Positions 1 to 58,625 of a stretch of DNA of 64,000 nucleotides are shown one piece after another. The notes under the pieces are model-generated. The model saw nothing but the letters and a program-made list of their open reading frames with translations, was not told where the DNA came from and made no database searches. A program made the translations under genes and the position numbers. This DNA comes from a virus (taxonomy: Duplodnaviria; Caudoviricetes). Each line of letters begins with the position of its first letter. The first letter of the stretch is position 1. Location of the stretch: positions 17,422 to 81,421 of the IMG/VR virus record IMGVR_UViG_3300030102_008735; one strand, 5' to 3'.

Positions 1-1
1 T

Positions 2-94
2 AATGATGAAAATAGGTATATGTGGACATGTGATGAATGTCAAAGCTCATTGAGTTATCCATCACCAAATGAAATTGAAGATTATTTAAAATAA
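2..94 (+). CDS. 3' end of a truncated small Zn-ribbon-like protein
   Basis: Open frame from the window edge: NDENRYMWTCDECQSSLSYPSPNEIEDYLK*; contains CxxC. Confidence 0.55.
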   Translation, partial: NDENRYMWTCDECQSSLSYPSPNEIEDYLK

Positions 95-101
95 AGGTTA
101 T

Positions 102-1034
102 ATGAAAAACTATTTAATTGGATCAAATAATTATGCACTACTTGCTTCTTATCTTTTAAGTGACATAACAATTATACCAACAAGTAAATTTGAAGCAAAC
201 AATGTAGAACCCGAATTCTTACCTAACACTCCGGAAATAATTAATATCGTAAATTCATTAGGACTAAAATATAAGGTAAAAATATTAAATGCATTTTTTG
301 ATGATAGAGGCAAAATATCAACAGTACCTTCAGATTCATTTAAAAATGTATATGCACTATCAACTAGGGGAAAACTTGCAGTTGAAAATAGTTACTTTGA
401 AAAATTTAAAGGTAGCATGGAATATGTTTCAATAAAAAATAAAGGACCATTTGAAAGTTTCTACTTACTATTTAAAGAGATTAAGAAAAATATTGTTCTT
501 AAGGATATGATAGATTCTGAGATAGATTCTATTAGTGTTAAAGATAGTAACATAATACTATCAGATGGAAATATACTTGAATATAAAAGACTAATATGGA
601 CTGGTGATATAAAAAATTTAGATAAAAAACTTAATTTATTTACAAAAAAAATATATGTATATGTATGTGAATACAATAACGAGGCTGATAAAAAAATGTC
701 AAACTTTTTTAGCTTTGGATATTCAACAGGTAAAACATACTTTAGAACTATTTATTTAAAAGACAAAATTGAATATCATTGTATGAAGAGAACATTTAAA
801 GATGAAATTGATGGCAATAAAATAGTAAACAGTTTTAATACGGAACAAATAATTGATAATTTAAGAAAAACAAACATGTATAATATAGATCTAATAAGTA
901 TGTACTCACAGTGGAATTTAGGTTATTCAATTAGTCAAGCATACCGTGATTGTAAAGAATTGTATGAATATTACAATTTAGATAAAAAAATAGGTGATAA
1001 TATTTTTAAATCCCAACAAAATTTGTTATATTAG
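102..1034 (+). CDS. Degenerate FAD-dependent oxidoreductase/mutase-like protein
   Basis: N-terminus YLIGSNNYALLASYLL resembles a decayed Rossmann motif; KRLIWTGDI resembles the UGM/amine-oxidase IYTGPID motif. Confidence 0.45.
   Translation: MKNYLIGSNNYALLASYLLSDITIIPTSKFEANNVEPEFLPNTPEIINIVNSLGLKYKVKILNAFFDDRGKISTVPSDSFKNVYALSTRGKLAVENSYFEKFKGSMEYVSIKNKGPFESFYLLFKEIKKNIVLKDMIDSEIDSISVKDSNIILSDGNILEYKRLIWTGDIKNLDKKLNLFTKKIYVYVCEYNNEADKKMSNFFSFGYSTGKTYFRTIYLKDKIEYHCMKRTFKDEIDGNKIVNSFNTEQIIDNLRKTNMYNIDLISMYSQWNLGYSISQAYRDCKELYEYYNLDKKIGDNIFKSQQNLLY
1003..1033 (+). promoter_or_regulatory. Conserved phage promoter, copy 1
   Basis: TTTTTAAATCCCAA-N6-TTGTTATATTA upstream of the 1061 ORF. Confidence 0.7.
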
Positions 1035-1060
1035 ATAAAATAAATAATAAAGGTTATATT

Positions 1061-1903
1061 ATGAATATTTACAAAAATCTTAATGAAGCATTCTGGCATG
1101 AACTCAATAGTATATCTATAATGGGTAAAAATGTAGAAAGCCGTGGTACAAAACAAAAAGAAATACTTTTTAGAAATTTTACCATAGAAGATCCAACAGA
1201 CTTAGATATAGTTTGGCCAAGTAGAAAATTTAATACAACATATACACTTGCTGAATTTCTTTGGTATCTGTCAAGAAATCCTAACTCAGTTAACATTGGA
1301 AAATTTGCAAGAATTTGGTTAAACATCAAAGATAACGAAGATAATGTAGAATCAAATTATGGCTGTTATGTATTTGGTAGTCAATGGGACTGGGCAGTAA
1401 AAGAATTGTTAGATGACAAGGATAGTCGACGTGCAACATTTGTAATTGGTCAACCATATCACAAAACAAAAAATCCTAATGATATACCATGTACACAATA
1501 TCTTCAATTTTTTATACGTGACAATAAACTTCATATGGGAACATACATGAGAAGTAATGACATTGTATTTGGTATGTCAAATGATATTTTTATATTTTGT
1601 TTGTTTCAACAATTAATGTTTAATGAATTAAAACAACATTACCCTGATTTACAAATAGGTACATACCATCACCATGCAGGAAGTTTACACTTATATGAAA
1701 TGCATTATGATATGGCTGCACAAATATTGGAAGGTGATAGGGCATCTGAGGATTATGAATTCTCAAGCAATATATTTACTCTTAAACCTAATATAACACT
1801 AGATTATATACAACAAAACAATCTGTATTTACCAGCCAAAGATATGACTAAAGAAGAAATTGGTGAATATGCAAAAACAACTGGTGAAAAATTATTTATA
1901 TGA
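1061..1903 (+). CDS. Thymidylate synthase-family dCMP hydroxymethylase-like enzyme (T4 gp42-like)
   Basis: ESNYG, DKDSRRA, catalytic PCT, MRSNDIVFGMSND (Asp at the E. coli TS N177 position, as in gp42 RSNDVVFGFRND), HHHAGSLHLY. Confidence 0.85.
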   Translation: MNIYKNLNEAFWHELNSISIMGKNVESRGTKQKEILFRNFTIEDPTDLDIVWPSRKFNTTYTLAEFLWYLSRNPNSVNIGKFARIWLNIKDNEDNVESNYGCYVFGSQWDWAVKELLDDKDSRRATFVIGQPYHKTKNPNDIPCTQYLQFFIRDNKLHMGTYMRSNDIVFGMSNDIFIFCLFQQLMFNELKQHYPDLQIGTYHHHAGSLHLYEMHYDMAAQILEGDRASEDYEFSSNIFTLKPNITLDYIQQNNLYLPAKDMTKEEIGEYAKTTGEKLFI

Positions 1904-2181
1904 AAAAGAAATCAATACTAAATAAGGCTGATGAAATAATTAATAATCGTTCAGAAGAAAAAGAAAGAATGTACGGTCCTTTTAGTGAAGGAATGGAAAG
2001 GGCTGCAAAAATAGCAAGTGGCATGACAGGTAAAGACTTTACTGCTGAAGATATGTATGCTGCATTGGTTGCACTAAAACTATCAAGACATTCATATAAT
2101 TATCGTGAAGATAATTTATTAGATTGTGTTGCATATTTAGGTGCATTAGATAATTACATAAAGGAGAATAAGAATGGCTAA
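1900..2181 (+). CDS. DUF6378-like nucleotide-modification-associated protein
   Basis: SILNKADEII..R..MYGP..MERAA..LKLSR..DNLLDCVAY pattern. Confidence 0.7.
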   Translation: MKKKSILNKADEIINNRSEEKERMYGPFSEGMERAAKIASGMTGKDFTAEDMYAALVALKLSRHSYNYREDNLLDCVAYLGALDNYIKENKNG

Positions 2182-2641
2182 TTTTGATAATGAATGTAAA
2201 GATTTAAATGTAAAGGATTCATATAGTGAATCAACAACTCATTTGCATGATATAATGAGTCACCAAAAGTATATGCAAGAATATACTTATAAGTTAGATT
2301 TTTCAGAAATGACTATTGCTGAAATTATGAAGTTTTGGCATGCAAACAATCATGCAATTATTGATGAAATACATGAAATGACAGATGCTCTAGGTGGAAT
2401 AAAGGATGGCTCAGGTAGTGCGGTTTGGAAGTACTGGAAACAGGATCATAAGAAATACGAGAGTATGAAAATATCAGATCTATCTGAAGGTGATAGAAAA
2501 GAGTTATATATGGAATTTGTTGATGTACTACATTTCCTAATGAACTATGCAGCATCAATAGGTTTGGATGCAAAAACAGTGTATAACTATTATTTTGCAA
2601 AGGCTGAGGAAAATAAGAAAAGACAACACCGAGGATATTAA
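2174..2641 (+). CDS. Dimeric (all-alpha) dCTPase/dUTPase, T4 gp56-like
   Basis: DEIHEMTDA, WKYWK, EFVDVLHF, C-terminal KAEENKKRQHRGY. Confidence 0.85.
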   Translation: MANFDNECKDLNVKDSYSESTTHLHDIMSHQKYMQEYTYKLDFSEMTIAEIMKFWHANNHAIIDEIHEMTDALGGIKDGSGSAVWKYWKQDHKKYESMKISDLSEGDRKELYMEFVDVLHFLMNYAASIGLDAKTVYNYYFAKAEENKKRQHRGY

Positions 2642-3057
2642 TGGACAAACAAAGTAGATACGACATGGCATATATGAAAATGGCTAAAGAATGGAGTCAA
2701 CTATCATTTGCAAATAGAATGAAGGTTGGTGCAATTATAGTCAAAGACCAGCAAATTATTAGTGATGGTTTCAATGGTATGCCAAGTGGTATGGATAATT
2801 GTTGTGAAGGTAATGACGGACAAACAAAAAAGGAAGTTTTACATGCAGAGGCAAATGCAATTCTTAAATGTGCAAAACATAGAGGAGGTTGTGCAGGTTC
2901 AACTTTATATATTACATTAAGTCCATGCCAAGATTGCGCAAAACTAATTCACCAAGCAGGAATTAAAAGAGTTGTTTACAGTGATATCTATAGACATGGA
3001 AATGGATTAGAATTCCTAAATAGTTGCGGAATAAAAACTGAAAAAATTAATCTATGA
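2641..3057 (+). CDS. dCMP deaminase
   Basis: KVGAIIV, GFNG, HAEANAI, PCQDC zinc-deaminase motifs. Confidence 0.93.
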   Translation: MDKQSRYDMAYMKMAKEWSQLSFANRMKVGAIIVKDQQIISDGFNGMPSGMDNCCEGNDGQTKKEVLHAEANAILKCAKHRGGCAGSTLYITLSPCQDCAKLIHQAGIKRVVYSDIYRHGNGLEFLNSCGIKTEKINL

Positions 3058-3108
3058 AAACACCTGCTTTGAACTTTTCAACTTGTATTTATATGAGAGA
3101 CAAAAAAT

Positions 3109-3384
3109 ATGGTATATGCAAATAAAAAAATAGATTGGAAAATAAATATGGTTACGGTCGGCAATTGTGATGAATGCAAAAGAGTACATCCATTAGTTTC
3201 AAAATTCTGTGCAAAAAATAACATTAAGTTAAACATAATTCCTAATGCGGAATATGATCCAAAGAAATGGAATTTTGTAAATCAAATATGGCCATTTTTT
3301 ATTTTGGAAAAAAATGGTGAAAGTGTTTTAAAAATTAATGGATATAGAGGTGAATTTAAAAAAATTGAAAGGATGATATTATGA
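3109..3384 (+). CDS. Glutaredoxin/thioredoxin-fold protein
   Basis: CDEC motif after the first strand; WP cis-Pro-like motif. Confidence 0.6.
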   Translation: MVYANKKIDWKINMVTVGNCDECKRVHPLVSKFCAKNNIKLNIIPNAEYDPKKWNFVNQIWPFFILEKNGESVLKINGYRGEFKKIERMIL

Positions 3385-4676
3385 AAATAGGAATAGGTAA
3401 AATGGGGAAATCAATGTTATTTTCTCAAAGTAAATGGGGATTGATTGGTGGCGATGCTGCACCATCAATACTTTACACATCACTGGCATCAATAAATCCA
3501 AACATTACATTTTACATTGTAGGACGTTCTGACTTTTCAAAATTAACCAATGATGAAAAATCAAGACTATTTCCAAACAATAATGTTATAGACTGTTGGT
3601 CAGAAGCTGATATGAAAAATGCACATAGCAAATTTCATGCACCACTTGAATATGTAAACCAACACAACATAAAATTGGATGCATTTGTTATGATGTCAGG
3701 AATGTGTAGTAGTGTTAATATGAATGATATGATTTGGAGTGTAAAGAATCCAGGAAAATATTCAAAGACATTATATCAATTCCATCACTATGCAGGTCCA
3801 ATAATTCACTTTCTAAACATGACGCAAGTTCCAATGTTTACAATTAGTGAAGATCCTAGACACATAAGACTTAATGCAAAAGATTTATTCAATAGGGAAA
3901 AATTTTGTTTAAGTCAAGAAAACTCAGTACAGAAAGTAAAGCATATAGTTAATTATGATGATCAATCAACTGTTGAGTATGATATACCTGTTAAGTATGG
4001 TCAAACTGAAAAGATATTTTTAATTGGTGAAACTAAAAGAAATACATTAGAACTAAAAAAGGATATTCCAATAACAATGTTTATGAATAGTCACACAATG
4101 AAATCAAAAGAAACCAGAAAACCATTCATAGATGAATACATACACAGTAACTTTCCAGATTCAAAGGTTTATGGTAAATGGCCAAAGGAACTACTAGAAA
4201 GTGATAATAGATATGAAGCTATTAGAATGGGAGATATCATGGATGAAGTATTAAGAACAAAATATACATTAGTGGTATCAATAAAGCCAGGGTTTGTAAC
4301 TTGTAAACCTTGGGAAATGATAAATTTTGGAATCATACCATTTTTACATCCAACATATGACACTAACAATCTACTAGGATTTCCAGAATGGCTGCATGTA
4401 AAAGATGCAAATGATTTTAAAAATAAGGTTGAATTTTTAGAAAACAATCCTGATAAGTATATGAAGTTACGTGAATTACTACAAGATATGTTAGAACCAG
4501 AATTTTATGACGGAACATATATGAACAATTTAATTATGAGTAATGTATGTAATATGATAGGTAAAGAATATGAAAATGCTAATCAAGGAACATCAGTAAA
4601 AATGTCATCATTTTCAGAAAAAGAAAGTGTACAGAAAAAATTAAAAAAAGATAAAAAACAAATGGAGTTATTTTAA
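3381..4676 (+). CDS. DNA glycosyltransferase, GT-B fold, T4 beta-glucosyltransferase-like
   Basis: C-terminal half FVTCKPWEMINFGIIPFLHPTYD..LHVKDANDFKNKVEFL aligns by eye with T4 BGT FITLRVWETMAS..DEEFD..YVNNRAELIDRVNEL; sits beside the gp42/gp56-like genes; ends QMELF. Confidence 0.7.
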   Translation: MKIGIGKMGKSMLFSQSKWGLIGGDAAPSILYTSLASINPNITFYIVGRSDFSKLTNDEKSRLFPNNNVIDCWSEADMKNAHSKFHAPLEYVNQHNIKLDAFVMMSGMCSSVNMNDMIWSVKNPGKYSKTLYQFHHYAGPIIHFLNMTQVPMFTISEDPRHIRLNAKDLFNREKFCLSQENSVQKVKHIVNYDDQSTVEYDIPVKYGQTEKIFLIGETKRNTLELKKDIPITMFMNSHTMKSKETRKPFIDEYIHSNFPDSKVYGKWPKELLESDNRYEAIRMGDIMDEVLRTKYTLVVSIKPGFVTCKPWEMINFGIIPFLHPTYDTNNLLGFPEWLHVKDANDFKNKVEFLENNPDKYMKLRELLQDMLEPEFYDGTYMNNLIMSNVCNMIGKEYENANQGTSVKMSSFSEKESVQKKLKKDKKQMELF

Positions 4677-5041
4677 TGAATGATACAAGACCTAAAACAA
4701 TATTTTGTGATATAGATGGAACATTGGTTGAACATATGAAACCTAGCGAAGCAACCACGCCTTTTTCACGAATGAAACCTTTACCAGGTGCAGTTGATAA
4801 ATTATTAGAATGGGAAAGAAAAGGGTACAATATTATACTTACAACTGGTAGAAGAAATTGTGCAAGAAAACAAACAGAAGAACAATTAGCAAATGCAGGT
4901 ATAGTTTATGATCAATTGATTATGGGATTTGGTGGTGGAAAGAGATATTTAATCAATGATAGAAAACCTAATGGTCAAGAAGACTATGCAGTTGCAATAA
5001 ACATAGAAAGAAATACAGGAATTGGAAATATAGAATTATGA
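4676..5041 (+). CDS. HAD-superfamily sugar phosphatase
   Basis: FCDIDGTL motif I, TTGR motif II, IND motif IV. Confidence 0.85.
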   Translation: MNDTRPKTIFCDIDGTLVEHMKPSEATTPFSRMKPLPGAVDKLLEWERKGYNIILTTGRRNCARKQTEEQLANAGIVYDQLIMGFGGGKRYLINDRKPNGQEDYAVAINIERNTGIGNIEL

Positions 5042-5589
5042 ATTACGCTGAATTAAAAACAACAGTGATGTCAGAAATAAATGATGTATTAACATCAGTA
5101 GATGAAAAATCATTAGACATAATGTGTGACATAATACAATCATCAAATAAAATAGTTGTAGCTGGTGCCGGTAGAATGGGGTATTCAATAAAATGCTTTG
5201 GTATGAGATTAGGTCATATGGGATATCAAGCTTGGACTTTAGGTGATTCAACTGTACCTCAAATAGGAAAAGGTGATTTACTAATAGTTGCATCAGGAAG
5301 TGGTGAAACTGAAACCATCTACAATATAGTTTTAAAAGCAAAACAGAATCGTGCAAAGGTGATATTAATAACAACTAAAAAGGAATCAAGAATGGCTTCT
5401 TCATCAGACCATTTAGTAATTATGAATGCCGTTTCTGCCTTTACAGGTGATAGAGGAACTATTCAGCCTATGAAAACATATGTAGAGCAGTCATTACTTA
5501 TCTTATTGGATATTATGGCACTAAAACTTATGCAAGAGTCTGGTGAGACAAATTTCACAATGTCAAAAAGGCATTCACTTTTAGAGTAG
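5038..5589 (+). CDS. SIS-domain sugar-phosphate isomerase (6-phospho-3-hexuloisomerase/HxlB-like)
   Basis: GAGRMG, FGMRLGHMG, GDLLIVASGSGET, QPM..EQ, C-terminal RHSLLE. Confidence 0.88.
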   Translation: MNYAELKTTVMSEINDVLTSVDEKSLDIMCDIIQSSNKIVVAGAGRMGYSIKCFGMRLGHMGYQAWTLGDSTVPQIGKGDLLIVASGSGETETIYNIVLKAKQNRAKVILITTKKESRMASSSDHLVIMNAVSAFTGDRGTIQPMKTYVEQSLLILLDIMALKLMQESGETNFTMSKRHSLLE

Positions 5590-5594
5590 AAAAT

Positions 5595-6293
5595 ATGAAA
5601 AACAAATTTATGATAGGTGCATCTTTAATATGTGGAAATCAAGCAGATTTAAAAGGTGACGTTGAATTACTAAAAAAATCAGGTCAAGTTGACTTTTTAC
5701 ATGTTGATACTATGGATGGATTGTTTGTACCTAGATATGGAATGTATCCTGAACAAGTAAAACACATTAAAGAAATATGCGACATACCTGTAAATGTACA
5801 TATGATGGTATCAAATCCTGAACCATTCATTGACTGGTTTGCAGAATCAGGTGCTGATATAATTACAATTCATGTAGAACCTAATCAGCAATTAGGAAGA
5901 ACTATTGCAATGATAAAAAAGGCAGGATGTAAAGTTGGACTTGCATTTAATATACATTCACAATATCATATCATTGAAAGTTTTATAGATGATATAAGTT
6001 TAGTTATGTTAATGGCAATAAATCCGGGAATCCTAGGACAAGGTTGTTGGCCAGGAATCTACAATAAGATTGATAGATTTAGAAAGTATTTGGACAACAA
6101 CGGAAGAAGAGATGTTATAATTGAGATAGATGGAGGTGTAACACCAGAAACAGCTCCTAAATTAATAAAGGCAGGTGCAAATATGTTAACTTGTGGAACT
6201 GGAACAATATATAGACCTAAAGAGGCACCATTAGATATTAAGATTGGTCAATTTAAAAATAAAGTAAATAGGGAATTAGAATATGCAGTATAA
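5595..6293 (+). CDS. rpe: Ribulose-phosphate 3-epimerase family (Rpe/AlsE)
   Basis: LHVDTMDGLFVP, NVHMMV, MAINPG..GQ, IEIDGGV. Confidence 0.9.
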   Translation: MKNKFMIGASLICGNQADLKGDVELLKKSGQVDFLHVDTMDGLFVPRYGMYPEQVKHIKEICDIPVNVHMMVSNPEPFIDWFAESGADIITIHVEPNQQLGRTIAMIKKAGCKVGLAFNIHSQYHIIESFIDDISLVMLMAINPGILGQGCWPGIYNKIDRFRKYLDNNGRRDVIIEIDGGVTPETAPKLIKAGANMLTCGTGTIYRPKEAPLDIKIGQFKNKVNRELEYAV

Positions 6294-7911
6294 AGTATTA
6301 TTAACAACTTCAGGTATAGGTAGTAGATTAGGTGAAATAACCGACTATACAAATAAAGGATTAGTCAAGGTTGGTAAAAAACCAGCAATATCTTACATTA
6401 TTGAATCATATCCAAAAACAATGGAATTTGTTGTAACCATAGGATACTTTGCAGACCATGTAAGACAATTTCTAAACATTGCATATCCTGATAGAAAATT
6501 TACGTTTGTGGAAATTGATAACTATTCAGGTGAAGGAAGTAGTTTAGGATATTCTCAATTATGTGCAAAGGAACATTTACAATGCCCATTTATATATAAT
6601 GCATGCGATACTATAGTACTTGATACAATACCCGAACCTGATAGAGATTGGGTAGGTGGATTTAAACAAAAAGGATCCAGCCAATATGACAGCTATTGTG
6701 TTACAAATGGTGATGTTAAAGAGTTTTATACTAAAGGAAATATAGATTCTGATTATGTATATATTGGACTAATAGGTGTTAATGATTATGAAAACTATTG
6801 GGAAACAATGGAAAAACTATATAATGAAGATCATAATATGAGATCATTATCAGATCTATATTGTGTAAAGAATCAACTAAAAGAAGGCAAAAAAATATAT
6901 CACAAACAATTTATGACATGGTATGACATAGGAAATGTTGAGTCTTTAAATAAAGCAAGGACTGATATTCCAGACTCATTTAATATTTTAGATAAGTTAG
7001 AAGAATCTATTTATTTATTTGATGACCATGTTATTAAGTTTTTTGCAAATGAAAAAATGTCAACACAAAGAGTTGATAGAGCATCTATCCTTGATGGTAT
7101 GGTACCAAAGATTGTTGCTAAATCCCCAAACTTTTATAGATATGAATATGCCGAAGGTGATTTATATTCAAAGGTTGCAAATCCAATTACATTTGTTAAA
7201 CTATTAGATTGGGCAAAGGAAAATTTATGGAAAGAAAATGATGTTGTTAGTGAAACAGATTTTAGAAAAGCATGTATAGATTTTTACTATGAAAAAACAA
7301 TATCAAGAATAAATAAGTTTTATGATTCAACTCGTAACCTTGATAAAGTAGAAACGATTAATGGTTTGCAAACACCAACAATAAATGAAATGCTTAAAGC
7401 CATAAATAGTGATTGGTTATGTAAGCCAAAACAAACAGGCTTTCATGGTGACTTTATATTAGACAATATAATTTTAGGAGAAGAAGGATTTACTTTACTT
7501 GATTGGAGACAAAATTTTGGAGGTCTTATTGAGTGTGGTGATATGTATTATGACTTGGCAAAACTTAATCACAACTTAGTAGTTAATCATGAAATAGTAA
7601 ACAATAATCAATTTAAAGTTACAAAATCAAAAGATAATATTATAGTTGATATACATAGACGTCAATCCCTAATTGAATGTCAACAGGTTTATCATAAATG
7701 GATTGTTGATAACGGATATGATTTAAGTAAAGTAAAAGTTTTAACATCTTTGATTTGGTTAAATATGTCCGCACTTCACCATCATCCATTTGATGAATTT
7801 TTATATTATTATGGAAAATACACATTATTAAAAACATTAGGAGAATTAGAAAATGAATACGTTCCAACCTACAAACTTCAGTCCTCTAACAAAGTCTCAA
7901 ACATACTTTAA
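6283..7911 (+). CDS. Sugar-1-phosphate nucleotidyltransferase fused to an APH/choline-kinase-like domain
   Basis: N-terminal TTSGIGSRL..NKGLV and WYDIGN; C-terminal HGDFILDN, LLDW, YYDLAKL. Confidence 0.85.
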   Translation: MQYKVLLTTSGIGSRLGEITDYTNKGLVKVGKKPAISYIIESYPKTMEFVVTIGYFADHVRQFLNIAYPDRKFTFVEIDNYSGEGSSLGYSQLCAKEHLQCPFIYNACDTIVLDTIPEPDRDWVGGFKQKGSSQYDSYCVTNGDVKEFYTKGNIDSDYVYIGLIGVNDYENYWETMEKLYNEDHNMRSLSDLYCVKNQLKEGKKIYHKQFMTWYDIGNVESLNKARTDIPDSFNILDKLEESIYLFDDHVIKFFANEKMSTQRVDRASILDGMVPKIVAKSPNFYRYEYAEGDLYSKVANPITFVKLLDWAKENLWKENDVVSETDFRKACIDFYYEKTISRINKFYDSTRNLDKVETINGLQTPTINEMLKAINSDWLCKPKQTGFHGDFILDNIILGEEGFTLLDWRQNFGGLIECGDMYYDLAKLNHNLVVNHEIVNNNQFKVTKSKDNIIVDIHRRQSLIECQQVYHKWIVDNGYDLSKVKVLTSLIWLNMSALHHHPFDEFLYYYGKYTLLKTLGELENEYVPTYKLQSSNKVSNIL

Positions 7912-8215
7912 GACTTGGGGTGAGAATAAGTCTGAATTATTAAAAGATCTATTCACAGACGATATATTATTACAAGACTGGGATAATAAAGCAACTGGTA
8001 TAGATGAAGTATTAGAGGCAAATGCAGCAATATTTGCCGGTGTAACAGATATTAAAGCAGTTCCTTTAATGATAAGAGTTGTTGATAACATAGCCTATTG
8101 TGAACTAGAAGTATTAGTAAAGGCAGAAGGTACTATAAGTAAAATTTTAGTATTGGATATAATAACTTTTGACGAGGAAGGAAAAATTAAATCAATAAGA
8201 GCATATAAAGGGTAA
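7853..8215 (+). CDS. SnoaL/NTF2-like protein
   Basis: YFKTW..LFTDDILLQDW..DIITFDEEGKIKSIRAY pattern. Confidence 0.75.
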   Translation: MNTFQPTNFSPLTKSQTYFKTWGENKSELLKDLFTDDILLQDWDNKATGIDEVLEANAAIFAGVTDIKAVPLMIRVVDNIAYCELEVLVKAEGTISKILVLDIITFDEEGKIKSIRAYKG

Positions 8216-8217
8216 AC

Positions 8218-9465
8218 ATGAAACACGCAACAATAATTCCTTTAATAGGTGGTATGACACTTGCAAATAAAAAGATAACTGGTAAAGATCCAGAAGTTAT
8301 ATTATCATACTCACCGTTTAAGGCAAACGATAGTCACATAACCAAATATCTTCCAAAAGTACCATATAAAGTATTAGATGATATGGGAGATGATGAAAAA
8401 AATATATTAATTGAAAAACTAAAAGGAAAACTTGATTTTGTTTCAACTGTTTGTCCTTGTGCAGGATTGGCAGGTACAAATACTGCACCTAAAACAAGTA
8501 GTAAAGGTCGTGGAGCACATGCAGAACAAAATCAATGGATGTATAAAAGTGCAAAGCTAATTTTAGAAGATATAAAACCAAAAGTATTTTGGGGAGAAAA
8601 TGCGCCAGGCCTATTTACTAAAATGGGTGTAGAGGTTGCAGATAATCTTAGAAAAATTGGTGAAGATGCAGGATATAGCTTTTCAATGATTAAGACAAAT
8701 ACAGAGCTACATGGAATACCTCAGAGAAGAATTAGAACATTTTATTTTTTCTGGGATAGTCCTTCTCCACCACTCTTTAATTGGGTTAAGAGAGATACTC
8801 CAAAACTATTAGACTATCTTGGTGAAATACCAAAAGATGCAACACAATTTGATATGAGAATATGGATGGATCCCGTTACTGTTAAATATCCACCATATAA
8901 ATTTTTATTAGATAAATTAGGTTTGACTCATGAACAAATGGTTAAAAAAGTTGGAAAGGGAACTGTATTTAGATATATGCAAGACAATGATTTATTTGAT
9001 GAGTGCCTAGACTGGCTAAAAGTACACGCACCAAATGATGGTCCTAGTGGAGGAAAACCTGGAACAAATACTTATATTGATATCATTAATCATATAAAAA
9101 ATAAATTGGCTGATGGGAAAGGATATTGGGATAGTTCACCGCATTTATTTCACGAATCATTTAATGCAGTTATTGGAAGAAATATGTTTGATGGTGTACA
9201 TCCAATTGAAAATAGATATATGAGTGTTAGAGAATATATTCATATGATGGGAATGCCTCATGACTTTGAACTTGACAATATTAAAAACATAAATCATATT
9301 GCACAAAATGTTCCTGTAGGTACGGCATCAGATATGACTCAACATGTTGTTGACTATATAAACGGAAAGTCATCATTATCAGATTCAAAGTTTTTAAAAC
9401 AAGATAATGTTTCTAGAAAAACTGATGTAATTACAAATGAAAAACAACTTGAACTTTTTTCATAA
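8218..9465 (+). CDS. Divergent C5-cytosine DNA methyltransferase-like protein
   Basis: Motif IV CPCAG, motif VI GENAPGL, motif VIII PQRRIRTF, motif IX SVRE..GMP, motif X AQNVP; motif I atypical (IIPLIGG); ends QLELFS. Confidence 0.8.
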   Translation: MKHATIIPLIGGMTLANKKITGKDPEVILSYSPFKANDSHITKYLPKVPYKVLDDMGDDEKNILIEKLKGKLDFVSTVCPCAGLAGTNTAPKTSSKGRGAHAEQNQWMYKSAKLILEDIKPKVFWGENAPGLFTKMGVEVADNLRKIGEDAGYSFSMIKTNTELHGIPQRRIRTFYFFWDSPSPPLFNWVKRDTPKLLDYLGEIPKDATQFDMRIWMDPVTVKYPPYKFLLDKLGLTHEQMVKKVGKGTVFRYMQDNDLFDECLDWLKVHAPNDGPSGGKPGTNTYIDIINHIKNKLADGKGYWDSSPHLFHESFNAVIGRNMFDGVHPIENRYMSVREYIHMMGMPHDFELDNIKNINHIAQNVPVGTASDMTQHVVDYINGKSSLSDSKFLKQDNVSRKTDVITNEKQLELFS

Positions 9466-9469
9466 AATA

Positions 9470-9501
9470 TTTTTTTATATCGTGAGAAATGGTTATATTT
9501 A
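9470..9501 (+). promoter_or_regulatory. Conserved phage promoter, copy 2
   Basis: TTTTTTTATATCGT-N6-TGGTTATATTTA, 4 nt before ATG 9506. Confidence 0.7.
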
Positions 9502-9505
9502 ATAT

Positions 9506-9733
9506 ATGTCACCGGAAATACAAAAAATAATATATGAAGCAGCCATAAAGGCAGGTGACGAACTAAAAGGTAAACTGCCTCCCCACCGCTTTCATCCTAA
9601 TGGAAGAAACCCATATGCGCATGTATTCGAGAGAATAAAAAGTAAAATGGGTAAAAGCTATAAGGAATGTCAAGACTGGGAGGCAGATAAAATATTGGAT
9701 TTAATAGAATACTATGTTAAAAATCCATGCTAA
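9506..9733 (+). CDS. Hypothetical protein
   Basis: 75-aa ORF directly after the promoter (HPNGRNPYAH). Confidence 0.75.
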   Translation: MSPEIQKIIYEAAIKAGDELKGKLPPHRFHPNGRNPYAHVFERIKSKMGKSYKECQDWEADKILDLIEYYVKNPC

Positions 9734-9755
9734 CTAATAATAAAATTATTGCTAT

Positions 9756-12242
9756 ATGAAAAACAATTTTAAACTATCAAGAATTACAAGTAAATTTGAC
9801 AAAGGTTATTTTAACATATATCAATTTGGTTATGATGAAAACAATAAATTTGTAACTAAAGTTGATAAAATAAGAGACTATTTTTACTACTCTGCAAATA
9901 ACATTGATGATATAATGGACACACCTAACATGGATTTTGGGGATACACAGTTCTATGATAGCTTTAATGGTGAAAAAGTAAATAAAGTTTTCTATAATTC
10001 CATAAAGATAAAAAATAAAATTGTTAGAGAAAAAGCACCAAGAACATATCATGGAGATGTAAGCCCAGAGTTTAAACATATACTCGATAAAGGTTTAGAA
10101 TGGACTAATAATAGACATATTATTTATTATGATATTGAGACATGGGTAGACTTAGAAAATCCAACGGACAATAAACCAGAAAATGCCAAACAACCAATAA
10201 CATCAATACAGTGTTATTCAACTGATAAGAAACAATATTTTGTATTTGCATGGCACCCAGAAAAAACAAAAGACTTATCTGAGCCTTCAATGAAAACTGA
10301 AGGAAACACAACTTATGTAATGTGTAAAGATGAAGAAGATGTAATTATGGGATTCATAAATTTACTATCAATTAGTCATTGTGATATTTTAACAGGGTGG
10401 TACTGTTCAGGTTATGATATGCCATACATTATTAATAGATGTAAAAAACTAGGACTACCTTATGAAGAGATATCTCCAATCAAAGATGTATTTATGAAAA
10501 GGCGTGGTGAATATTGGAGAATTAACATACGAGGACTAGATCACGTTGATATGATGGAGGCTTTACAAGATATGGGTTACAATCTTCCTAATTGGAAATT
10601 AGCAACGGCATCAAAGGAAATACTTGGTATGGGCGAAATGGAAAAGTTAACAGAAGTCACTTGGAGAGATTGGATTGATAACTTTGACGGATTTATTAAG
10701 TATGGTATACGTGATGTACAAATATTGAAAGAAATATCTGAAAAGATACAGATGTTTGAATTATATACAACATTACAGCAAATTAGTAACATAGAAATAT
10801 TAACACATGCATTTTTTAAATCGGTTGTAGTTGATAACTATATACTTAAAGAATTTCATGGCCAACTTGCGTTTCCAACTAGAAGAACAGGAAAAAGACA
10901 AAATTACGCCGGAGCAATAGTGTTCAATCCAACAGAACCCGGCCGCCATAAAGATGTAACTGTAATGGACTATACTTCACTATATCCTACAAGCATTATG
11001 GCATTTAACATTAGCCCAGAAACATTTATATGTTCTAAGCAACAATGTGATTCTGCAGGATTTAAAATAGATGAAGTCATTGATAAATTAAAATCAGAAA
11101 ATACTCCTTACATAGATACTGGAGAAGACAGTACTTTATTTGGTGATAGATATCTTTTTTATGGCCATGATGAAAAGGAAGGACTATTACCTTATGTATT
11201 AAGAAAGCTTTTTCTAAAAAGAGTTGAAATAAATAAAAACTTATCGGAAGGTAAATATAAAGGTGATGAAAAAATTGCAATGGAAAAAAGGCAATGGACC
11301 TATAAGATCATCTTAAACAGTGCTTATGGTGCAATGGGATTCCCATTCTTTAGATTATATAAACCTGAATGTGCAGATGCAATTACATACTTTGCAAGAC
11401 AGGCATTAAAGTTTGCAACCGTTAAGTTTAATAGTGATCATAAAGTTTTATATGGTGATACTGATAGTATATTTGTAAAGTCAAATGGAAAGTCTGAAAA
11501 TGAAATGAAAGATGCATTGGTTGAATTTAATCATCAATTAAGAAATGAATTTATAGCAAAATACAATACAGGACTACCAGATGAATATATGTTAATGGAC
11601 CTTAAGTTTGAATATGATTTAGAATACATATATTTTGGAAACTCAAAAAAGAGATACTATGGAATAGTAAGGGATACAGGTAAAAAGTATATTAGAGGTA
11701 TGAACATTATTCGTAAAGATGCACCAACATTTTTAAAGAAGGCATTAAATGTTGTAACTGAAATGGCTGTAAGAGACAAATTAACATTGGATCATTTAGT
11801 AAAGTTAAGACAGAAAATAACAACTATTGACTATAAGGATATTGGAATATCAAAAAAGTTTACTAAAAAGTTTAATCAGTATACAAAAAATAAACCTCAA
11901 CATATAAAGGCATCAATGTGGGCCAATGATAAATTAGGAACATCAATTACACATACAGATACTCCATATCTATTTTATATAAAAAGTAAATGTGAAGATG
12001 ATCTTAAACCTAAAGAAAGACAAACTGCAATATGTTTAAACGAAGAAGATTTGCATCTAATAGATAAGCATAATGAAATATTTGAAATTGATTATGATAC
12101 ATACTATAAGAAGCAAGTAACTGAACAATTAAAAGAATTTGATTTAATACCAAACGTAAAAAAGTTACTAGAAAATGAAAAAAATAACAATGAATTTAAT
12201 ATTTATTCTGGTAAAGAGGTTACAGGATCACATATAAATTAG
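9756..12242 (+). CDS. polB: Family B DNA polymerase
   Basis: ExoI YDIET, DYTSLYPTSIMAFNISPET, KIILNSAYG, YGDTDS, KKRYYG. Confidence 0.97.
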   Translation: MKNNFKLSRITSKFDKGYFNIYQFGYDENNKFVTKVDKIRDYFYYSANNIDDIMDTPNMDFGDTQFYDSFNGEKVNKVFYNSIKIKNKIVREKAPRTYHGDVSPEFKHILDKGLEWTNNRHIIYYDIETWVDLENPTDNKPENAKQPITSIQCYSTDKKQYFVFAWHPEKTKDLSEPSMKTEGNTTYVMCKDEEDVIMGFINLLSISHCDILTGWYCSGYDMPYIINRCKKLGLPYEEISPIKDVFMKRRGEYWRINIRGLDHVDMMEALQDMGYNLPNWKLATASKEILGMGEMEKLTEVTWRDWIDNFDGFIKYGIRDVQILKEISEKIQMFELYTTLQQISNIEILTHAFFKSVVVDNYILKEFHGQLAFPTRRTGKRQNYAGAIVFNPTEPGRHKDVTVMDYTSLYPTSIMAFNISPETFICSKQQCDSAGFKIDEVIDKLKSENTPYIDTGEDSTLFGDRYLFYGHDEKEGLLPYVLRKLFLKRVEINKNLSEGKYKGDEKIAMEKRQWTYKIILNSAYGAMGFPFFRLYKPECADAITYFARQALKFATVKFNSDHKVLYGDTDSIFVKSNGKSENEMKDALVEFNHQLRNEFIAKYNTGLPDEYMLMDLKFEYDLEYIYFGNSKKRYYGIVRDTGKKYIRGMNIIRKDAPTFLKKALNVVTEMAVRDKLTLDHLVKLRQKITTIDYKDIGISKKFTKKFNQYTKNKPQHIKASMWANDKLGTSITHTDTPYLFYIKSKCEDDLKPKERQTAICLNEEDLHLIDKHNEIFEIDYDTYYKKQVTEQLKEFDLIPNVKKLLENEKNNNEFNIYSGKEVTGSHIN

Positions 12243-12244
12243 TT

Positions 12245-12541
12245 ATGAAAAATTACTATCAACAATATTTAGACAATCATTCAAATCCAAAATGTAGACT
12301 ATTACATTTTATTGGACAGTGGTTTACAATATTTTTTACAATTGGTGTAATTTATTTTCAGTACTGGTTATTGGTACCTTTTATTCCTCTAGTAGTATAT
12401 CCTTTTGCAATAAGTGGCCATTACTTTTTTGGCAACAAAGGTGAAAAACCATCATTTACTAAAATGGGATTTTTACAAGCAAAGCTATCCGATTGGAAAA
12501 TGTTTTTTGATATACTACGAGGAAAGATAACAATATGGTAA
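12245..12541 (+). CDS. DUF962/Mpo1-like membrane protein
   Basis: YL.HSNPKCRLLHFIG, GHYFF..KP.F. Confidence 0.8.
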   Translation: MKNYYQQYLDNHSNPKCRLLHFIGQWFTIFFTIGVIYFQYWLLVPFIPLVVYPFAISGHYFFGNKGEKPSFTKMGFLQAKLSDWKMFFDILRGKITIW

Positions 12542-12561
12542 AATTAATTTAGGAGATAAAA

Positions 12562-14502
<1,941 letters not shown>

Positions 14503-14503
<1 letters not shown>

Positions 14504-26514: not shown

Positions 26515-27309
26515 ATGAAAGTAGCATTATGTTTATATGGATTGGTTGGAAGCACAGCAGGTAAATCATCTGATAAAAAGGGTGGTACAAAGGAAGTTTT
26601 AAATTTATGTTATGACGCATTTAAAAAAATGATAATTGACAAAAACGATACTGATGTTTTTTTCCATACATGGGACACTGATGTTGAAAATGAATTGGTT
26701 GAAAAATATGAACCAAAAAAATATCACTGTGAAAATCAAATTGTTTTTCCTATGGGTAAATGGGCAAATGATGTATGTACTAAATATGAAGGAAAAGTTA
26801 ATTTTGATATAAGAAAACGAATTCAGTCACATTATAGTAGATGGTATAGTACACAGGAAGTTTTAGATTTAAAATCACAACATGAAAATGAAAAAGGTTT
26901 CAAATATGACATGGTTATGATATGTAGGTTTGATGTTGTATGGAATAAGCCAGTAATTTTTAAACAATTTAATAATGAACTTTTCTATATATCAAATACA
27001 TATAAAAGAAACAAACCTTGGGGTTGGCCTTTTGGAAAGGAGATGGACGAAGTTGATGACCTGTGGTTCTTTTCAAATAGTGTTAACATGGATAGGTTTG
27101 GTATATTATTTGAAATGATTGATTCATATATGGAATCAGGTTGCCCAGATTACAATGGAATATCCAATCATATGTTGGCAAAATGGCATTTAGAAAAGTT
27201 AGGTTTATTACCAGATAGTATAGGATTTGCTTTTCGCAATGATTGGTTTGGAATGACATTTTTACATACATCTCCAACGGCTAGACATTTTTATGGAGTT
27301 AAGATATGA
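26515..27309 (+). CDS. Putative glycosyltransferase of viral glycan clusters
   Basis: MKVALCLYG, DVFFHTW, YDMVMICRFD, DLWFFS. Confidence 0.6.
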   Translation: MKVALCLYGLVGSTAGKSSDKKGGTKEVLNLCYDAFKKMIIDKNDTDVFFHTWDTDVENELVEKYEPKKYHCENQIVFPMGKWANDVCTKYEGKVNFDIRKRIQSHYSRWYSTQEVLDLKSQHENEKGFKYDMVMICRFDVVWNKPVIFKQFNNELFYISNTYKRNKPWGWPFGKEMDEVDDLWFFSNSVNMDRFGILFEMIDSYMESGCPDYNGISNHMLAKWHLEKLGLLPDSIGFAFRNDWFGMTFLHTSPTARHFYGVKI

Positions 27310-28946
27310 GAATAGTTGGTTTCCAATCTGGTGCACACGATGTAGCTTACTGCATATTAGAGAATGGTGTACCAATTATACATGAAGAACTTGAAAGATT
27401 AATAAGAATAAAGGAACCTAGAGGTGATGGTTTAAAAATGTACTTTGATAGGGTAGGTGAAGATTTACATGTAGATAATTTTGCATTTGGAAATCCAGGA
27501 TTTGCATATCCAGGTGATAGTGAAAAGGCAAAGAAAATGAGAAAAGATTGTTATAATCAATCTTCAATGGATGCAATGGAAAGGGTACTAGAAAAAAGTG
27601 GAGGTAAAATGCATGAAATAGGACATCACCAAAGTCATGCAGCAAATGCATTTTTCTCAAGTAATTTCAATGATGCTATAATATTCACTATAGATGGTGG
27701 TGGAGTTGATTTTGCAATGCCGCATCAACTAAAAGGTGGTAGTCATATTCAAACTGCAACCACTGTTTGGTTAGGAAAAGAAAATAAGATACACCCAGTT
27801 GATATAATGGATGTAAAGTTAAGAAATATTGGATCACCTTGGAGATTATACACTAGGCAAATATTTGGACTATCATCAGGATATCCTAAAGGTAACCAAG
27901 TTGGAACAGTTATGGCATTGGCATGTGTAGGAAATCCTGATAAATATTTTAGTGAATTTCTTTATGGATTTGAAGCAGGTGGTGGTGGTCATACACCTTT
28001 AACAAAAGGAATATGCGAAAAGTATAGAAAAATTGTACAGAGGTCTGAACAAGATAAGTATGATGTAGCGGCTGCAATACAAAAGGCAACTGAAATAGCA
28101 ACATTTGAATTTATGGATTTTCATATCAAACAAGGAAACTATAAAAACATATGTTTATCTGGAGGAGTGGCATTAAATTGCTTAATGGTTGGAAAAATGT
28201 TGGATTGGTGGCCTGGTGTAAATATTTATGTTGACCCTGTCCCATATGATGGAGGATTGGCTATTGGTTGTGCAAGATATTTATGGCATCATATATTAGA
28301 TAATCCTAGAATAGAGTGGAAAGATAATTCTTCACCATACCTAGGAACAAAGTATGATTTGGAAGACATAGAGACTGCAATAGATAATCATAATGTAAAG
28401 TATAGAAAAGTTACAGATGATGATATTGTAAAAATGTTATGTGATCAAAAGATAGTGTCAGTATTTGGTGGAGGTTCAGAATCAGGAAGAAGGGCATTAG
28501 GAAATAGAAGTATACTTGCTGACCCAAGATATAAGGAAATGAAAGATACTATTAATGAAAAAGTAAAACACAGGCAGTGGTTTAGACCATTCGCACCTGC
28601 TATATTATCTGAAGAAACTAAAAATTGGTTTGAAAAAGATGTTAATAGTCCGTATATGAGTTTTGCAATTCCATTCAAAAAAGAAGTAAGGGACAAGGTA
28701 CAAGCAGTTGTACATTTTGACGGTACAGGTAGATTACAGACAGTTAGTAAAAATGATAATAAATGGTTTCATGGATTAATATCAAAATTTAAGAAAAAAA
28801 CAGGAGTACCAGTTTTATTAAACACGAGTTTTAATGATAGAGAACCAATTGTAGAAACACCGGAAGATGCAATAAAATGTTTTATGGGTACAGATATTGA
28901 CGTCTTATACTTTTTTGATGTTGGTTTAATAGTGGAGAAAAAATAA
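27306..28946 (+). CDS. NodU/CmcH-family carbamoyltransferase
   Basis: HD, EELER, HHQSHAA, DGGG, SGGVALNC, RALGNRSILA, FRPFAP, LLNTSFN. Confidence 0.95.
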   Translation: MRIVGFQSGAHDVAYCILENGVPIIHEELERLIRIKEPRGDGLKMYFDRVGEDLHVDNFAFGNPGFAYPGDSEKAKKMRKDCYNQSSMDAMERVLEKSGGKMHEIGHHQSHAANAFFSSNFNDAIIFTIDGGGVDFAMPHQLKGGSHIQTATTVWLGKENKIHPVDIMDVKLRNIGSPWRLYTRQIFGLSSGYPKGNQVGTVMALACVGNPDKYFSEFLYGFEAGGGGHTPLTKGICEKYRKIVQRSEQDKYDVAAAIQKATEIATFEFMDFHIKQGNYKNICLSGGVALNCLMVGKMLDWWPGVNIYVDPVPYDGGLAIGCARYLWHHILDNPRIEWKDNSSPYLGTKYDLEDIETAIDNHNVKYRKVTDDDIVKMLCDQKIVSVFGGGSESGRRALGNRSILADPRYKEMKDTINEKVKHRQWFRPFAPAILSEETKNWFEKDVNSPYMSFAIPFKKEVRDKVQAVVHFDGTGRLQTVSKNDNKWFHGLISKFKKKTGVPVLLNTSFNDREPIVETPEDAIKCFMGTDIDVLYFFDVGLIVEKK

Positions 28947-42559: not shown

Positions 42560-42712
42560 ATGAAAGTTAATTGGATAAATGGCTTTGATGCCGGAAACAA
42601 AAAAGAGAAGTACTATCTTGAATTTAGAGTTGGTACTTTTACTATTTTAGAAATAAAATGGGAAAAATCTAGATTTAGATTTATGTTATTAAATATGGGA
42701 TTTGAAATATGA
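42560..42712 (+). CDS. 50-aa hypothetical protein (not in ORF track)
   Basis: MKVNWINGFDAGNKKEKYYLEFRVG...MGFEI*; ATGA overlap with 42709. Confidence 0.6.
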   Translation: MKVNWINGFDAGNKKEKYYLEFRVGTFTILEIKWEKSRFRFMLLNMGFEI

Positions 42713-58307: not shown

Positions 58308-58625
58308 ATGGCTAACAAGCAAATTAAGAAAATAAAGCATAATCATCCAATTTATCCACCCAGTTTAATGAATTTAAACGGAAAAAAATACTTAATGCCT
58401 GGATGGGTAGAAGTACCAAACAATACTACATTGGATGATATTGATTGGACTCCACCTAAACAACCAGAAACAACTGGTGAGTGGGAGTTTGAGAGTTCAA
58501 GTAGTCCTGGCGTTATGTACAAAGTAACAGAAGTTAGTGGTTCATTAAAATGCGACTGTCCTGGACATCAATATAGAAAAGTAAAGTGTAAACACATAAA
58601 ATCAGTAGAGAATGATAGACAATAA
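58308..58625 (+). CDS. SWIM zinc-finger protein
   Basis: CDCPG..CKH; ATG 58308 preferred because the TTG start lies inside the promoter. Confidence 0.8.
   Translation: MANKQIKKIKHNHPIYPPSLMNLNGKKYLMPGWVEVPNNTTLDDIDWTPPKQPETTGEWEFESSSSPGVMYKVTEVSGSLKCDCPGHQYRKVKCKHIKSVENDRQ

Follow-up and report, generated by a model that had tools for sequence, protein, structure and literature searches.

The 64,000-nucleotide stretch of phage DNA analysed here (the window) carries a predicted cluster for modifying the cytosines of the phage genome. It comprises bases 17422-81421 of IMG/VR record IMGVR_UViG_3300030102_008735, which has 81,421 bases and a CheckV completeness of 49%. In the first 14 kb of the window all long open reading frames (ORFs) lie on the + strand, and those between positions 1061 and 9465 form a tightly packed chain, in which neighbours overlap by 1-11 nt or are spaced 2-5 nt apart. 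Two junctions depart from this: a 51-nt gap precedes position 3109, and the ORF at 7853, as listed, has a 59-nt overlap. A first-pass annotation had described the block as a self-contained cytosine hypermodification cluster. In family searches all the genes named there were found in their places, on the + strand and upstream of the gene for a family B DNA polymerase (PolB). The predicted products of the chain and the matches behind them are as follows:

1061-1903, + strand: dCMP hydroxymethylase of the T4 gp42 type, a thymidylate synthase (TS) homolog (PF00303, 2e-15)
1900-2181, + strand: DUF6378 protein (PF19905, 1e-10)
2174-2641, + strand: dCTPase/dUTPase, T4 gp56 homolog, an all-alpha NTP pyrophosphatase (phrog_173, 1.5e-15)
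2641-3057, + strand: dCMP deaminase (PF00383, 7e-25; phrog_174, 5e-57)
3109-3384, + strand: thioredoxin-fold protein with a CDEC motif (Atlas thioredoxin-family clusters, TM 0.70-0.74)
3381-4676, + strand: GT-B glycosyltransferase (GT), predicted to act on 5-hydroxymethylcytosine (5hmC) in DNA (AlphaFold2 model, fold searches)
4676-5041, + strand: HAD-IIIA phosphatase, predicted to take the terminal phosphate off a sugar bisphosphate (several HAD families, 1e-5 to 1e-8)
5038-5589, + strand: SIS sugar-phosphate isomerase of the 6-phospho-3-hexuloisomerase (PHI) clade (TIGR03127)
5595-6293, + strand: paralog of the ribulose-phosphate 3-epimerase (Rpe) family (PF00834, 1e-53, 182 bits)
6283-7911, + strand: bifunctional nucleotidyltransferase and APH/choline-kinase-type kinase (NTK), 542 aa (Pfam NTP_transferase and APH, weak)
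7853-8215, + strand: SnoaL_2/NTF2-like protein (PF12680, 9e-8)
8218-9465, + strand: C5-cytosine-methyltransferase-like enzyme (MT-like; PF00145, 5e-14)

Judged from its genes, the phage very probably makes DNA containing 5hmC and glycosylates this base with a nucleoside diphosphate (NDP) sugar of its own making.

Predicted genes for the base, the transferase and the sugar donor

The closest solved relatives of the TS homolog in the PDB were MilA (6e-25) and T4 dCMP hydroxymethylase (2.5e-17). Its active site reads Y94 D143 C146 T147 R166 S167 N168 D169 G173 D177 in E. coli ThyA numbering. In an alignment with E. coli ThyA, T4 gp42 and RB69 gp48 it matched T4 gp42 exactly at each of the ten positions compared, including D169, where RB69 gp48 has N169. 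Among the TS homologs of related viral loci D169 and D177 were kept in 52 of 52, and N169 occurred in none. According to PMC13326640, N177D marks a cytosine substrate and an acidic residue at position 143 a non-methyl product, whereas flavin-dependent 5-hydroxy-dCMP synthases, such as those of RB69 and DLP3, are recognised by D169N, all tested ones having N169. As D169 is kept, the window enzyme does not appear to be of the 5-hydroxycytosine type. The signature supports a gp42-type enzyme, with 5-hydroxymethyl-dCMP as the predicted product.

The pyrophosphatase encoded at 2174-2641 aligned with T4 gp56 in BLASTP (2e-22, 29% identity over 150 of 155 residues), and a PDB sequence search with it returned no match below E 0.1. 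The annotated gp42-like synthase and gp56-like dCTPase were thus both confirmed at the level of homology, and 5hmC made as in T4 is the predicted base. The 'glutaredoxin' label of the 3109-3384 product was roughly right: the CDEC motif and the thioredoxin-like fold agree with it, but there was no match in Pfam, PHROG or NCBIfam.

The GT had 67 homologs in the protein collection, none usefully named. A model built from 36 homologs (AlphaFold2) had a pLDDT of 90.5. Foldseek against the PDB placed T4 beta-glucosyltransferase (BGT) first (2e-8). In VIA-align the top four matches were T4 BGT entries (Z 20.1-20.8, with rmsd 4.2-4.6 over 307-314 aligned residues); lower ranks were taken by GT4 enzymes (up to 18.5), the HY126 DNA arabinosyltransferase (15.8) and T4 alpha-glucosyltransferase (15.3-15.4). 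For the model, then, the description 'BGT-like' holds in fold, with a margin of about 2 Z units. In the 36-sequence alignment an Asp at residue 100 of the GT is nearly invariant, a possible counterpart of the catalytic Asp100 of BGT.

The genes for the HAD, SIS, Rpe-family and NTK proteins (the cassette) lie between those of the GT and the MT-like enzyme, so the annotated presence of NDP-sugar-making genes in the transferase operon stood. The HAD protein has a DxDGT N-terminus; its scores with TIGR01662 and TIGR01656 (GmhB-type IIIA) were below the cut-offs, and BLASTP gave no alignment with RB69 gp51. The SIS protein scored 169.8 bits with the NCBIfam model for PHI (TIGR03127, cut-off 160), 27.7 bits with KdsD and 22-24 bits with GmhA. 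Its PDB matches included B. subtilis YckF (2.6e-30), MJ1247 (5.8e-21) and API 3etn (8e-4), and its identity with RB69 gp55 was 27% over 118 aa.

For the Rpe paralog the PDB search gave Rpe 1rpx (5.5e-37) and AlsE 3ct7 (5.7e-29). The stretches HVDTMDG, VHMM and EIDGG, which we take to be the metal-binding and catalytic residues of Rpe, align with 1rpx, whose NPGFGGQ loop reads NPGILGQ in the window protein. The score with TIGR01163 was 177 bits (cut-off 212.6) and that with the subfamily model NF004076 173.3 (cut-off 165).

Both halves of the NTK have invariant motifs in an alignment of 18 sequences: GxGxR...K (G11, R15, K25) and D109 in the N-terminal domain, HGDxxxxN...D (H388-G-D390, N395, D407) in the C-terminal domain. 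Foldseek with a model (pLDDT 78) found LicC (TMt 0.79), HddC, MurU and RmlA-type enzymes as matches to the N-terminal domain. Alignments with RB69 gp53 (25% identity, E 0.01) and gp52 (22%, 4e-5) were weak and nearly full length. The protein is predicted to combine a sugar-1-phosphate nucleotidyltransferase (N-terminal) with an APH-type sugar kinase (C-terminal). SnoaL-like homologs lay near NTK genes in three of the 80 cellular loci and in no viral locus out of 100.

We also considered a reverse ribulose monophosphate route, in which PHI and Rpe would free formaldehyde for use by the hydroxymethylase. It was discarded because the family matches of the cluster ORFs included no hexulose-phosphate synthase and the Rpe-family match is full-length.

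The MT-like protein is remote from solved enzymes, its best PDB match being M.HaeIII at 4e-4. The motifs PLIGG, CPCxG, GENA, QxRxR (QRRIR) and QNVPV, presumably motifs I, IV, VI, VIII and X of the C5-methyltransferases, are kept in 67 homologs. Among isolates the gene was found in only 8 phage records. A predicted complex of the GT and the MT-like protein scored 0.00, which is evidence in neither direction.

Related loci and genomic setting

An alignment-based scan of IMG/VR gave 193 relatives of the GT, the best 80 of which were examined; scanning viral contigs with the GT sequence alone had matched only the near-identical contig L006. Genes in the 80 viral loci were counted by tblastn with the window proteins (E <= 1e-4); many contigs are cut, and absences are to be read as lower bounds. 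The counts were GT 80, MT-like 76, TS homolog 51, dCMP deaminase 42, NTK 27, PolB 27, HAD 4, SIS 1 and Rpe 1. With iterated profiles NTK was found in 61 of the loci. The iterated HAD profile drifted, labelling some nucleotidyltransferase-kinases and a 340-aa ORF, and its 71 of 80 loci are an upper bound.

The MT-like gene is a fixed partner of the GT gene. The two occurred together in 76 of the 80 loci, in most of them with the MT-like gene directly after that of the GT. They adjoin even in contig L007, where the order is inverted (DUF6378-MT-GT-SIS-Rpe-NTK) and a DUF6378 homolog adjoins the MT-like gene too. What lies between or beside the two varies by phage. NTK plus HAD is the commonest content; some phages have two unknown proteins and a CTP_transf_like cytidylyltransferase, one has a cytidylyltransferase with an epimerase/dehydratase of the short-chain dehydrogenase/reductase (SDR) type, one has a GDP-mannose 4,6-dehydratase (394 bits), and some have a second glycosyltransferase. 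This conserved pair of GT and MT-like genes, with swappable sugar cassettes between or beside them, is new here, as are the kinship of the SIS-Rpe-NTK set with a cellular operon and the dedicated Rpe paralog in cells, both described below.

Twenty viral loci had an Rpe homolog. In ten of them, including the L007 contig, Rpe was directly followed by NTK; nine of the ten had SIS upstream and nine had GT-MT downstream. Two further loci had GT and TS genes nearby in a different arrangement, and in eight Rpe stood alone. SIS and Rpe co-occurred in all nine untruncated phage loci. In the five Rpe-NTK loci whose ORFs were inspected, the HAD is of the KdsC-like kind: L007 has it fused to SIS, whereas in L091, L093, L098 and L099 it is encoded by an ORF of its own directly upstream of SIS. 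Another arrangement was seen in contigs L102 (2203-8111) and L103, where GT and gp42-like TS genes are followed by genes for a TIM-barrel protein resembling EryC (4k3z, 1.5e-45), two Zn-dependent dehydrogenases of the polyol-phosphate type (4a2c, 5e-36) and an Rpe homolog, and by a 518-aa ORF; L103 also has a weak NTK match (23%, 1e-5) upstream of the GT.

Cultured phages carry parts of the system. In Pseudoalteromonas phage vB_Psh_XG4 the GT and MT-like genes are about 1.2 kb apart. The gene row of Enterococcus phage 9183 comprises a thymidylate kinase, a TS homolog with the gp42 signature, a dUTPase, a HAD protein, a 545-aa nucleotidyltransferase-type protein and a GT homolog. Cyanophage S-TIM5 (L086; 5766-6602 and 8986-10203) has an MT-like homolog of 29% identity, and this GT is not beside it. 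The TS homolog of S-TIM5 has C143 and H147 but also D177 (signature YCCHRSNDGD), which points to a cytosine nucleotide as its substrate; BFVD lists a 'DNA alpha-GT' for S-TIM5.

Relatives of the NTK were also sought in cells. A search of one genome per prokaryote species with the NTK (type-D alignment) gave 196, and the best 80 were examined. By record title they belong to Patescibacteria, Bdellovibrionales, Bacteroidota, Gammaproteobacteria, Chlamydiae, DPANN archaea and others. Besides NTK (80) the loci contained a KdsC-like HAD in 69, Rpe in 46, SIS in 42 and a SnoaL-like gene in 3; GT, MT, TS, dCMP deaminase and PolB were each counted in none. The usual gene order is SIS-Rpe-NTK-HAD.

The window proteins resemble these cellular proteins (best identities: NTK 58%, SIS 52%, Rpe 50%) more than the copies in other phages (29-38%, 31-44% and 28-38%, respectively). 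In a FastTree phylogeny of 86 NTK sequences, midpoint rooted and leaving out matches of fewer than 400 aligned residues or ORFs shorter than 450 aa (5 of the 80 cellular loci), the window protein was the sole phage leaf in a clade of 52 (support 0.905). The cassette is probably a bacteria-derived pathway, akin to a widespread cellular operon that has no assigned product.

In five cellular genomes the operon Rpe scored 196-205 bits. A further Rpe-family gene elsewhere in the genome scored 252-270 bits in three of them and 114 bits in one; the fifth had none. Since in three of the five the operon gene is a second copy beside a higher-scoring one, this argues for a dedicated paralog, presumably with a substrate of its own, in those cells. 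The cellular neighbours include CapD-like and DegT-like proteins (labels from sequence features and one tblastn match to an SDR gene of the window). The commonest neighbour, a 378-aa protein, gave no match in the PDB search. Cellular loci without SIS and Rpe often have a cupin-like ORF of 115-121 aa before the kinase gene (25 loci).

Upstream of the window the record has gp32-like, RecA/UvsX-like, FEN, DnaB-like and ribonucleotide reductase genes, which place the cluster in the replication and nucleotide module of the phage. The recurrence of the same genes together in related viral loci indicates that the cluster is more than a chance assembly. A consensus promoter scan of positions 1-12500 gave 88 promoter-like sites against 85.8 expected and a terminator scan of the same region 2 sites against 3.2, no excess in either case. 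At least part of the cluster stretch is contained in 20 public runs from 8 studies (marine and estuary metagenomes), all of them assembled contigs. The four runs that were aligned carry near-identical pieces; joints of low support had 85% similarity and flanks shorter than 35 nt. The genes flanking the chain are:

102-1034, + strand: 310-aa protein, possibly with an FAD-oxidoreductase or UDP-galactopyranose-mutase-like fold (Atlas structure rows only)
9756-12242, + strand: PolB, the flanking replication gene (PF00136, 2e-44; PF03104)

The 310-aa ORF, which the first-pass annotation had not named, gave no match in Pfam, PHROG or NCBIfam. Atlas gave TM values of 0.68-0.74 to amine-oxidase/PPOX-type proteins and also listed the flagellin-modification protein FlmF; the nearest clusters were viral. 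Its GxGxxG dinucleotide-binding motif is degenerate (LIGSNNY). Among the 80 viral loci it adjoins the TS homolog only in L006. By these fold matches it might be a sugar-nucleotide mutase-like enzyme, and its membership of the cluster is uncertain.

Directly after PolB (12245-14503) come genes for an Mpo1-like (DUF962) protein, GroES and GroEL; chaperonins encoded by phages are uncommon. Farther on, positions 16562-37717 hold a glycan-biosynthesis island of about 21 kb, which lies inside the phage, since phage genes follow farther along, with an endolysin-like one at 38938 and one for an ATP-dependent DNA ligase at 58612. It encodes two GT4 glycosyltransferases (one matching 'GT4 in conflict systems'), three of family GT2 and one TOD1/MUCI70-like, as well as a 2-hydroxyacid dehydrogenase, a CMP-sugar synthetase, NeuB, a carbamoyltransferase (27306-28946), a UDP-GlcNAc 2-epimerase, a GFO/IDH/MocA oxidoreductase, two SDR epimerase/dehydratases and a UDP-glucose/GDP-mannose dehydrogenase. 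These enzymes may act on DNA, with further sugars or carbamoylation, or on a surface or virion glycan. The ORF at 42709-47646 encodes a 1645-aa protein, the last 60 residues of which match a type IX secretion C-terminal sorting domain (Por_Secre_tail, 2e-11), a hint of a Bacteroidota host. Upstream of the window the record contains a 443-aa ORF (L002, 5376-6707) that weakly matches DNA polymerase A (1.3e-8, narrowly over the cut-off), in addition to the full PolB. IMG/VR classes the record as 'provirus', yet the replication genes, the modification cluster, the endolysin-like gene and the ligase span it on one strand with an even G+C content of about 30%. No tRNA was found in a scan of the window, and no integrase was noticed among the ORFs scanned.

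Proposed pathway and competing explanations

We consider it somewhat probable that the operon serves a genome with glycosylated 5hmC, the sugar donor being made by the phage. By homology to T4, the gp56 homolog would destroy dCTP before replication, the gp42-type enzyme would convert dCMP to 5-hydroxymethyl-dCMP, and the deaminase would supply dUMP. Some kinase, together with PolB, would bring 5hmC into DNA. In the cassette the Rpe paralog and the PHI-type isomerase would turn a ketose phosphate of the host into an aldose phosphate not available from the host, by epimerisation at C3 and then isomerisation. The kinase domain of the NTK would phosphorylate this aldose phosphate at C1, the HAD protein would strip the terminal phosphate, and the nucleotidyltransferase domain would then form the NDP-sugar. 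After replication the BGT-fold transferase would attach the sugar to the hydroxymethyl group. The enzyme types and their linkage are observed, and the order of the donor steps follows, by analogy, that of the Afh arabinose and heptose pathways. In HY126, according to PMC13326640 (citing He et al.), AfhE phosphorylates arabinose-5-phosphate at C1, AfhF (a HAD protein) removes the 5-phosphate, and AfhE makes UDP-arabinose.

Whether the sugar is a pentose or a hexose is beyond the reach of sequence alone. The new modified base suggested in the first-pass annotation is accordingly a possibility that the sequence neither establishes nor contradicts. The separate Rpe paralog in cells and the constant company of SIS and Rpe suggest a product that the host lacks. 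Roughly estimated, there is an even chance of a pentose (arabinose, xylose or lyxose, via ribulose- or xylulose-5-phosphate), arabinose itself having a fair share of that chance but falling clearly short of even. A hexose, allose or altrose, would be made from fructose-6-phosphate via allulose-6-phosphate; this route suits the hexulose-6-phosphate clade of the isomerase and the presence of AlsE in the epimerase family, and we rate it as doubtful. Equally doubtful is another sugar or a mistaken donor scheme. A heptose route is possible.

Several points weigh against a glycosylated 5hmC genome with a phage-made donor. Every function has been assigned by homology. No sequence similarity between the GT and T4 BGT was detected by BLASTP (E 0.19), and as fold matches the GT4 enzymes come only about 2 Z units behind BGT. 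The SIS protein passes the curated cut-off for true PHI; if it were one, the donor scheme would fail, because PHI makes no aldose. Since ordinary Rpe outscores AlsE, the Rpe paralog may merely boost ribulose-5-phosphate. A C5-methyltransferase would be left without a substrate in fully 5hmC-substituted DNA, which the scheme leaves unexplained; the MT-like enzyme could act on cytosines remaining after partial replacement or on the substituted base, or the gene order could simply have been inherited. Nor has the label 'self-contained' been borne out. T4 needs a dNMP kinase for its 5hmC route, and the whole 81,421-base record had no family match to a dNMP/thymidylate kinase (PF02223) or to ThyX (PF02511). 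The missing kinase proves little, because the record is half a genome. Finally, the 21-kb glycan island and the CapD-like and DegT-like neighbours in cells mean that the cassette could serve a glycan other than DNA.

In its full form this last view holds that the base is ordinary glucosyl-5hmC made from host UDP-glucose, and that the HAD-SIS-Rpe-NTK cassette serves a host-surface or virion glycan. It draws on the 44-58% identity of the cassette to the cellular operon beside CapD-like and DegT-like genes, on the phage's own island with five glycosyltransferases, a TOD1/MUCI70-like protein, NeuB and CMP-sugar synthetase, and on the use of UDP-glucose by T4 BGT, the closest solved fold. Yet in the translationally packed operon the cassette is flanked by the genes for the GT and its constant MT-like partner, and related phages hold other donor-making genes in the same slot. 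SIS-Rpe-NTK directly precedes GT-MT in nine further viral loci, whereas GT, MT and TS were found in none of the 80 cellular ones. We regard this view as quite improbable. Arabinose on 5-hydroxycytosine, as in an RB69-type system, is highly improbable. PMC13326640 describes the same logic there (a TS homolog, a GT-B transferase, HAD, SIS, a kinase/nucleotidyltransferase fusion and adjacent PolB), but the window enzyme has D169, against N169 in all the tested 5-hydroxycytosine synthases of that paper. Moreover, the isomerase is of the PHI type with API 3etn only at 8e-4, the fold of the GT comes closer to T4 BGT, with a Z of 20.8, than to the HY126 transferase, with 15.8, and the HAD protein does not align with RB69 gp51.

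The final base might also be more than glycosyl-5hmC, if the MT-like enzyme attacks C6 of a 5-substituted cytosine, or if it methylates unreplaced cytosines in a mixed genome. That 76 of the 80 loci pair it with the GT, mostly side by side and so even in the inverted L007, would accord with such a role, as would the retention of all catalytic motifs in 67 homologs and the distance of the family from bacterial Dcm-type enzymes (best PDB match 4e-4; only 8 isolate phage records). Enterococcus phage 9183, however, has TS-HAD-NTK-GT with no MT-like gene in a 13-kb stretch, and no Enterococcus phage was among the MT-like matches; S-TIM5 has the MT-like gene with this GT not beside it; gene order can persist within one broad phage lineage without functional coupling; and the chemistry is speculative. 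We hold an active part of this kind to be unlikely. The boldest version, a sugar never before seen in DNA (for example allose, altrose, xylose or lyxose) on 5hmC together with the MT-like protein as a new DNA-level hypermodification enzyme acting on the substituted cytosine, we think rather unlikely; if true, it would give the widespread bacterial and archaeal SIS-Rpe-kinase/nucleotidyltransferase-phosphatase operon its first product.

Glycosylated cytosines shield phage DNA against restriction enzymes and CRISPR nucleases, and in turn they are attacked by type IV restriction and by DNA glycosylases. The donors known so far are, to our knowledge, host UDP-glucose in the T-even phages, phage-made UDP-arabinose, and galactose plus glucose in RL38JI, the latter two on 5-hydroxycytosine. 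The window is part of a large, uncultured, mostly marine phage group (193 relatives of the GT in IMG/VR) with a fixed core (gp42-type synthase, deaminase, BGT-fold GT and MT-like enzyme) and interchangeable donor cassettes, a pattern that can serve as a map of where to seek new DNA sugars. Through the window cassette, DNA modification in phages is linked to an unstudied NDP-sugar operon of cells, one that is common among Patescibacteria and Bacteroidota. Two cultured relatives are suited to chemistry, namely Enterococcus phage 9183 and Pseudoalteromonas phage vB_Psh_XG4. A literature search, thin on subscription journals, returned no paper on the DNA modification of phage 9183, on phage DNA modification with a 6-phospho-3-hexuloisomerase or on the cellular SIS-Rpe-NTK-HAD operon, and nothing relevant on dCMP hydroxymethylase combined with a cytosine-5 methyltransferase and a glycosyltransferase.

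Comparison with known systems

With the 5hmC system of T4 the window shares the gp42 signature, the gp56 homolog, the dCMP deaminase, BGT as the closest fold of its GT, and the adjacent PolB. It differs in a GT without sequence similarity to BGT, in an NDP-sugar pathway of its own, in the C5-methyltransferase-like partner, and in that no gp1-type kinase was found in the record.

NDP-heptose pathways use the isomerase GmhA, the kinase HldE or HddA, the phosphatase GmhB and the transferase HldE or HddC. The window would follow the same four-step logic, in which a ketose phosphate becomes an aldose phosphate, is phosphorylated at the anomeric carbon, loses its terminal phosphate and receives a nucleotidyl group; HddC is among the top fold matches of the NTK, and the HAD protein weakly matches GmhB-type IIIA models. 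In contrast, GmhA scores only 22-24 bits with the SIS protein, the kinase is of the APH type and not PfkB or GHMP, and a 3-epimerase is added.

The gene order SIS-Rpe-NTK is shared with the cellular operon, and in the tree the window NTK falls within a group of 51 cellular sequences. The HAD differs, being KdsC-like in the cellular loci and of another HAD-IIIA type in the window, and none of the 80 has TS, GT or MT-like genes. Enterococcus phage 9183 also has a TS homolog with the gp42 signature, and its ORF048 is a GT homolog (28%, 4e-39) directly preceded by the HAD and the 545-aa nucleotidyltransferase-type protein. Within the stretch viewed it lacks genes for SIS, Rpe and the MT-like enzyme; it also differs in its Gram-positive host, and it is cultured.

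The Afh systems of RB69, DLP3 and HY126, as PMC13326640 describes them, likewise have an SIS isomerase, a HAD protein, a nucleotidyltransferase-kinase fusion, a GT-B DNA glycosyltransferase and adjacent PolB. The window NTK aligns lengthwise with RB69 gp53 and gp52, and its N-terminal fold matches, LicC and MurU, are those reported in the same text for the RB69 gp52:53 and DLP3 gp82 enzymes. On the other hand, the window has D169 (5hmC type), a PHI-type and not a KdsD-type isomerase, an added Rpe paralog and a HAD protein without sequence relation to RB69 gp51, and identities are only 22-27%. The first-pass annotation took RB69-type phages to arabinosylate 5hmC, a premise now out of date: the glycosylated base of RB69, DLP3 and HY126 is given as 5-hydroxycytosine in that text. 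It had also called the enzyme set of the window unlike these pathways. This was too strong, because the window has the same kinds of enzyme and an isomerase; HAD, kinase/nucleotidyltransferase and SIS follow the Afh logic, whereas the PHI-type isomerase, the Rpe paralog and the predicted 5hmC do set the window apart. By analogy, the locus is best described as a T4-type 5hmC system joined to an Afh-like donor pathway of new make-up, which would employ the known logic of isomerase, anomeric kinase, terminal phosphatase and nucleotidyltransferase.

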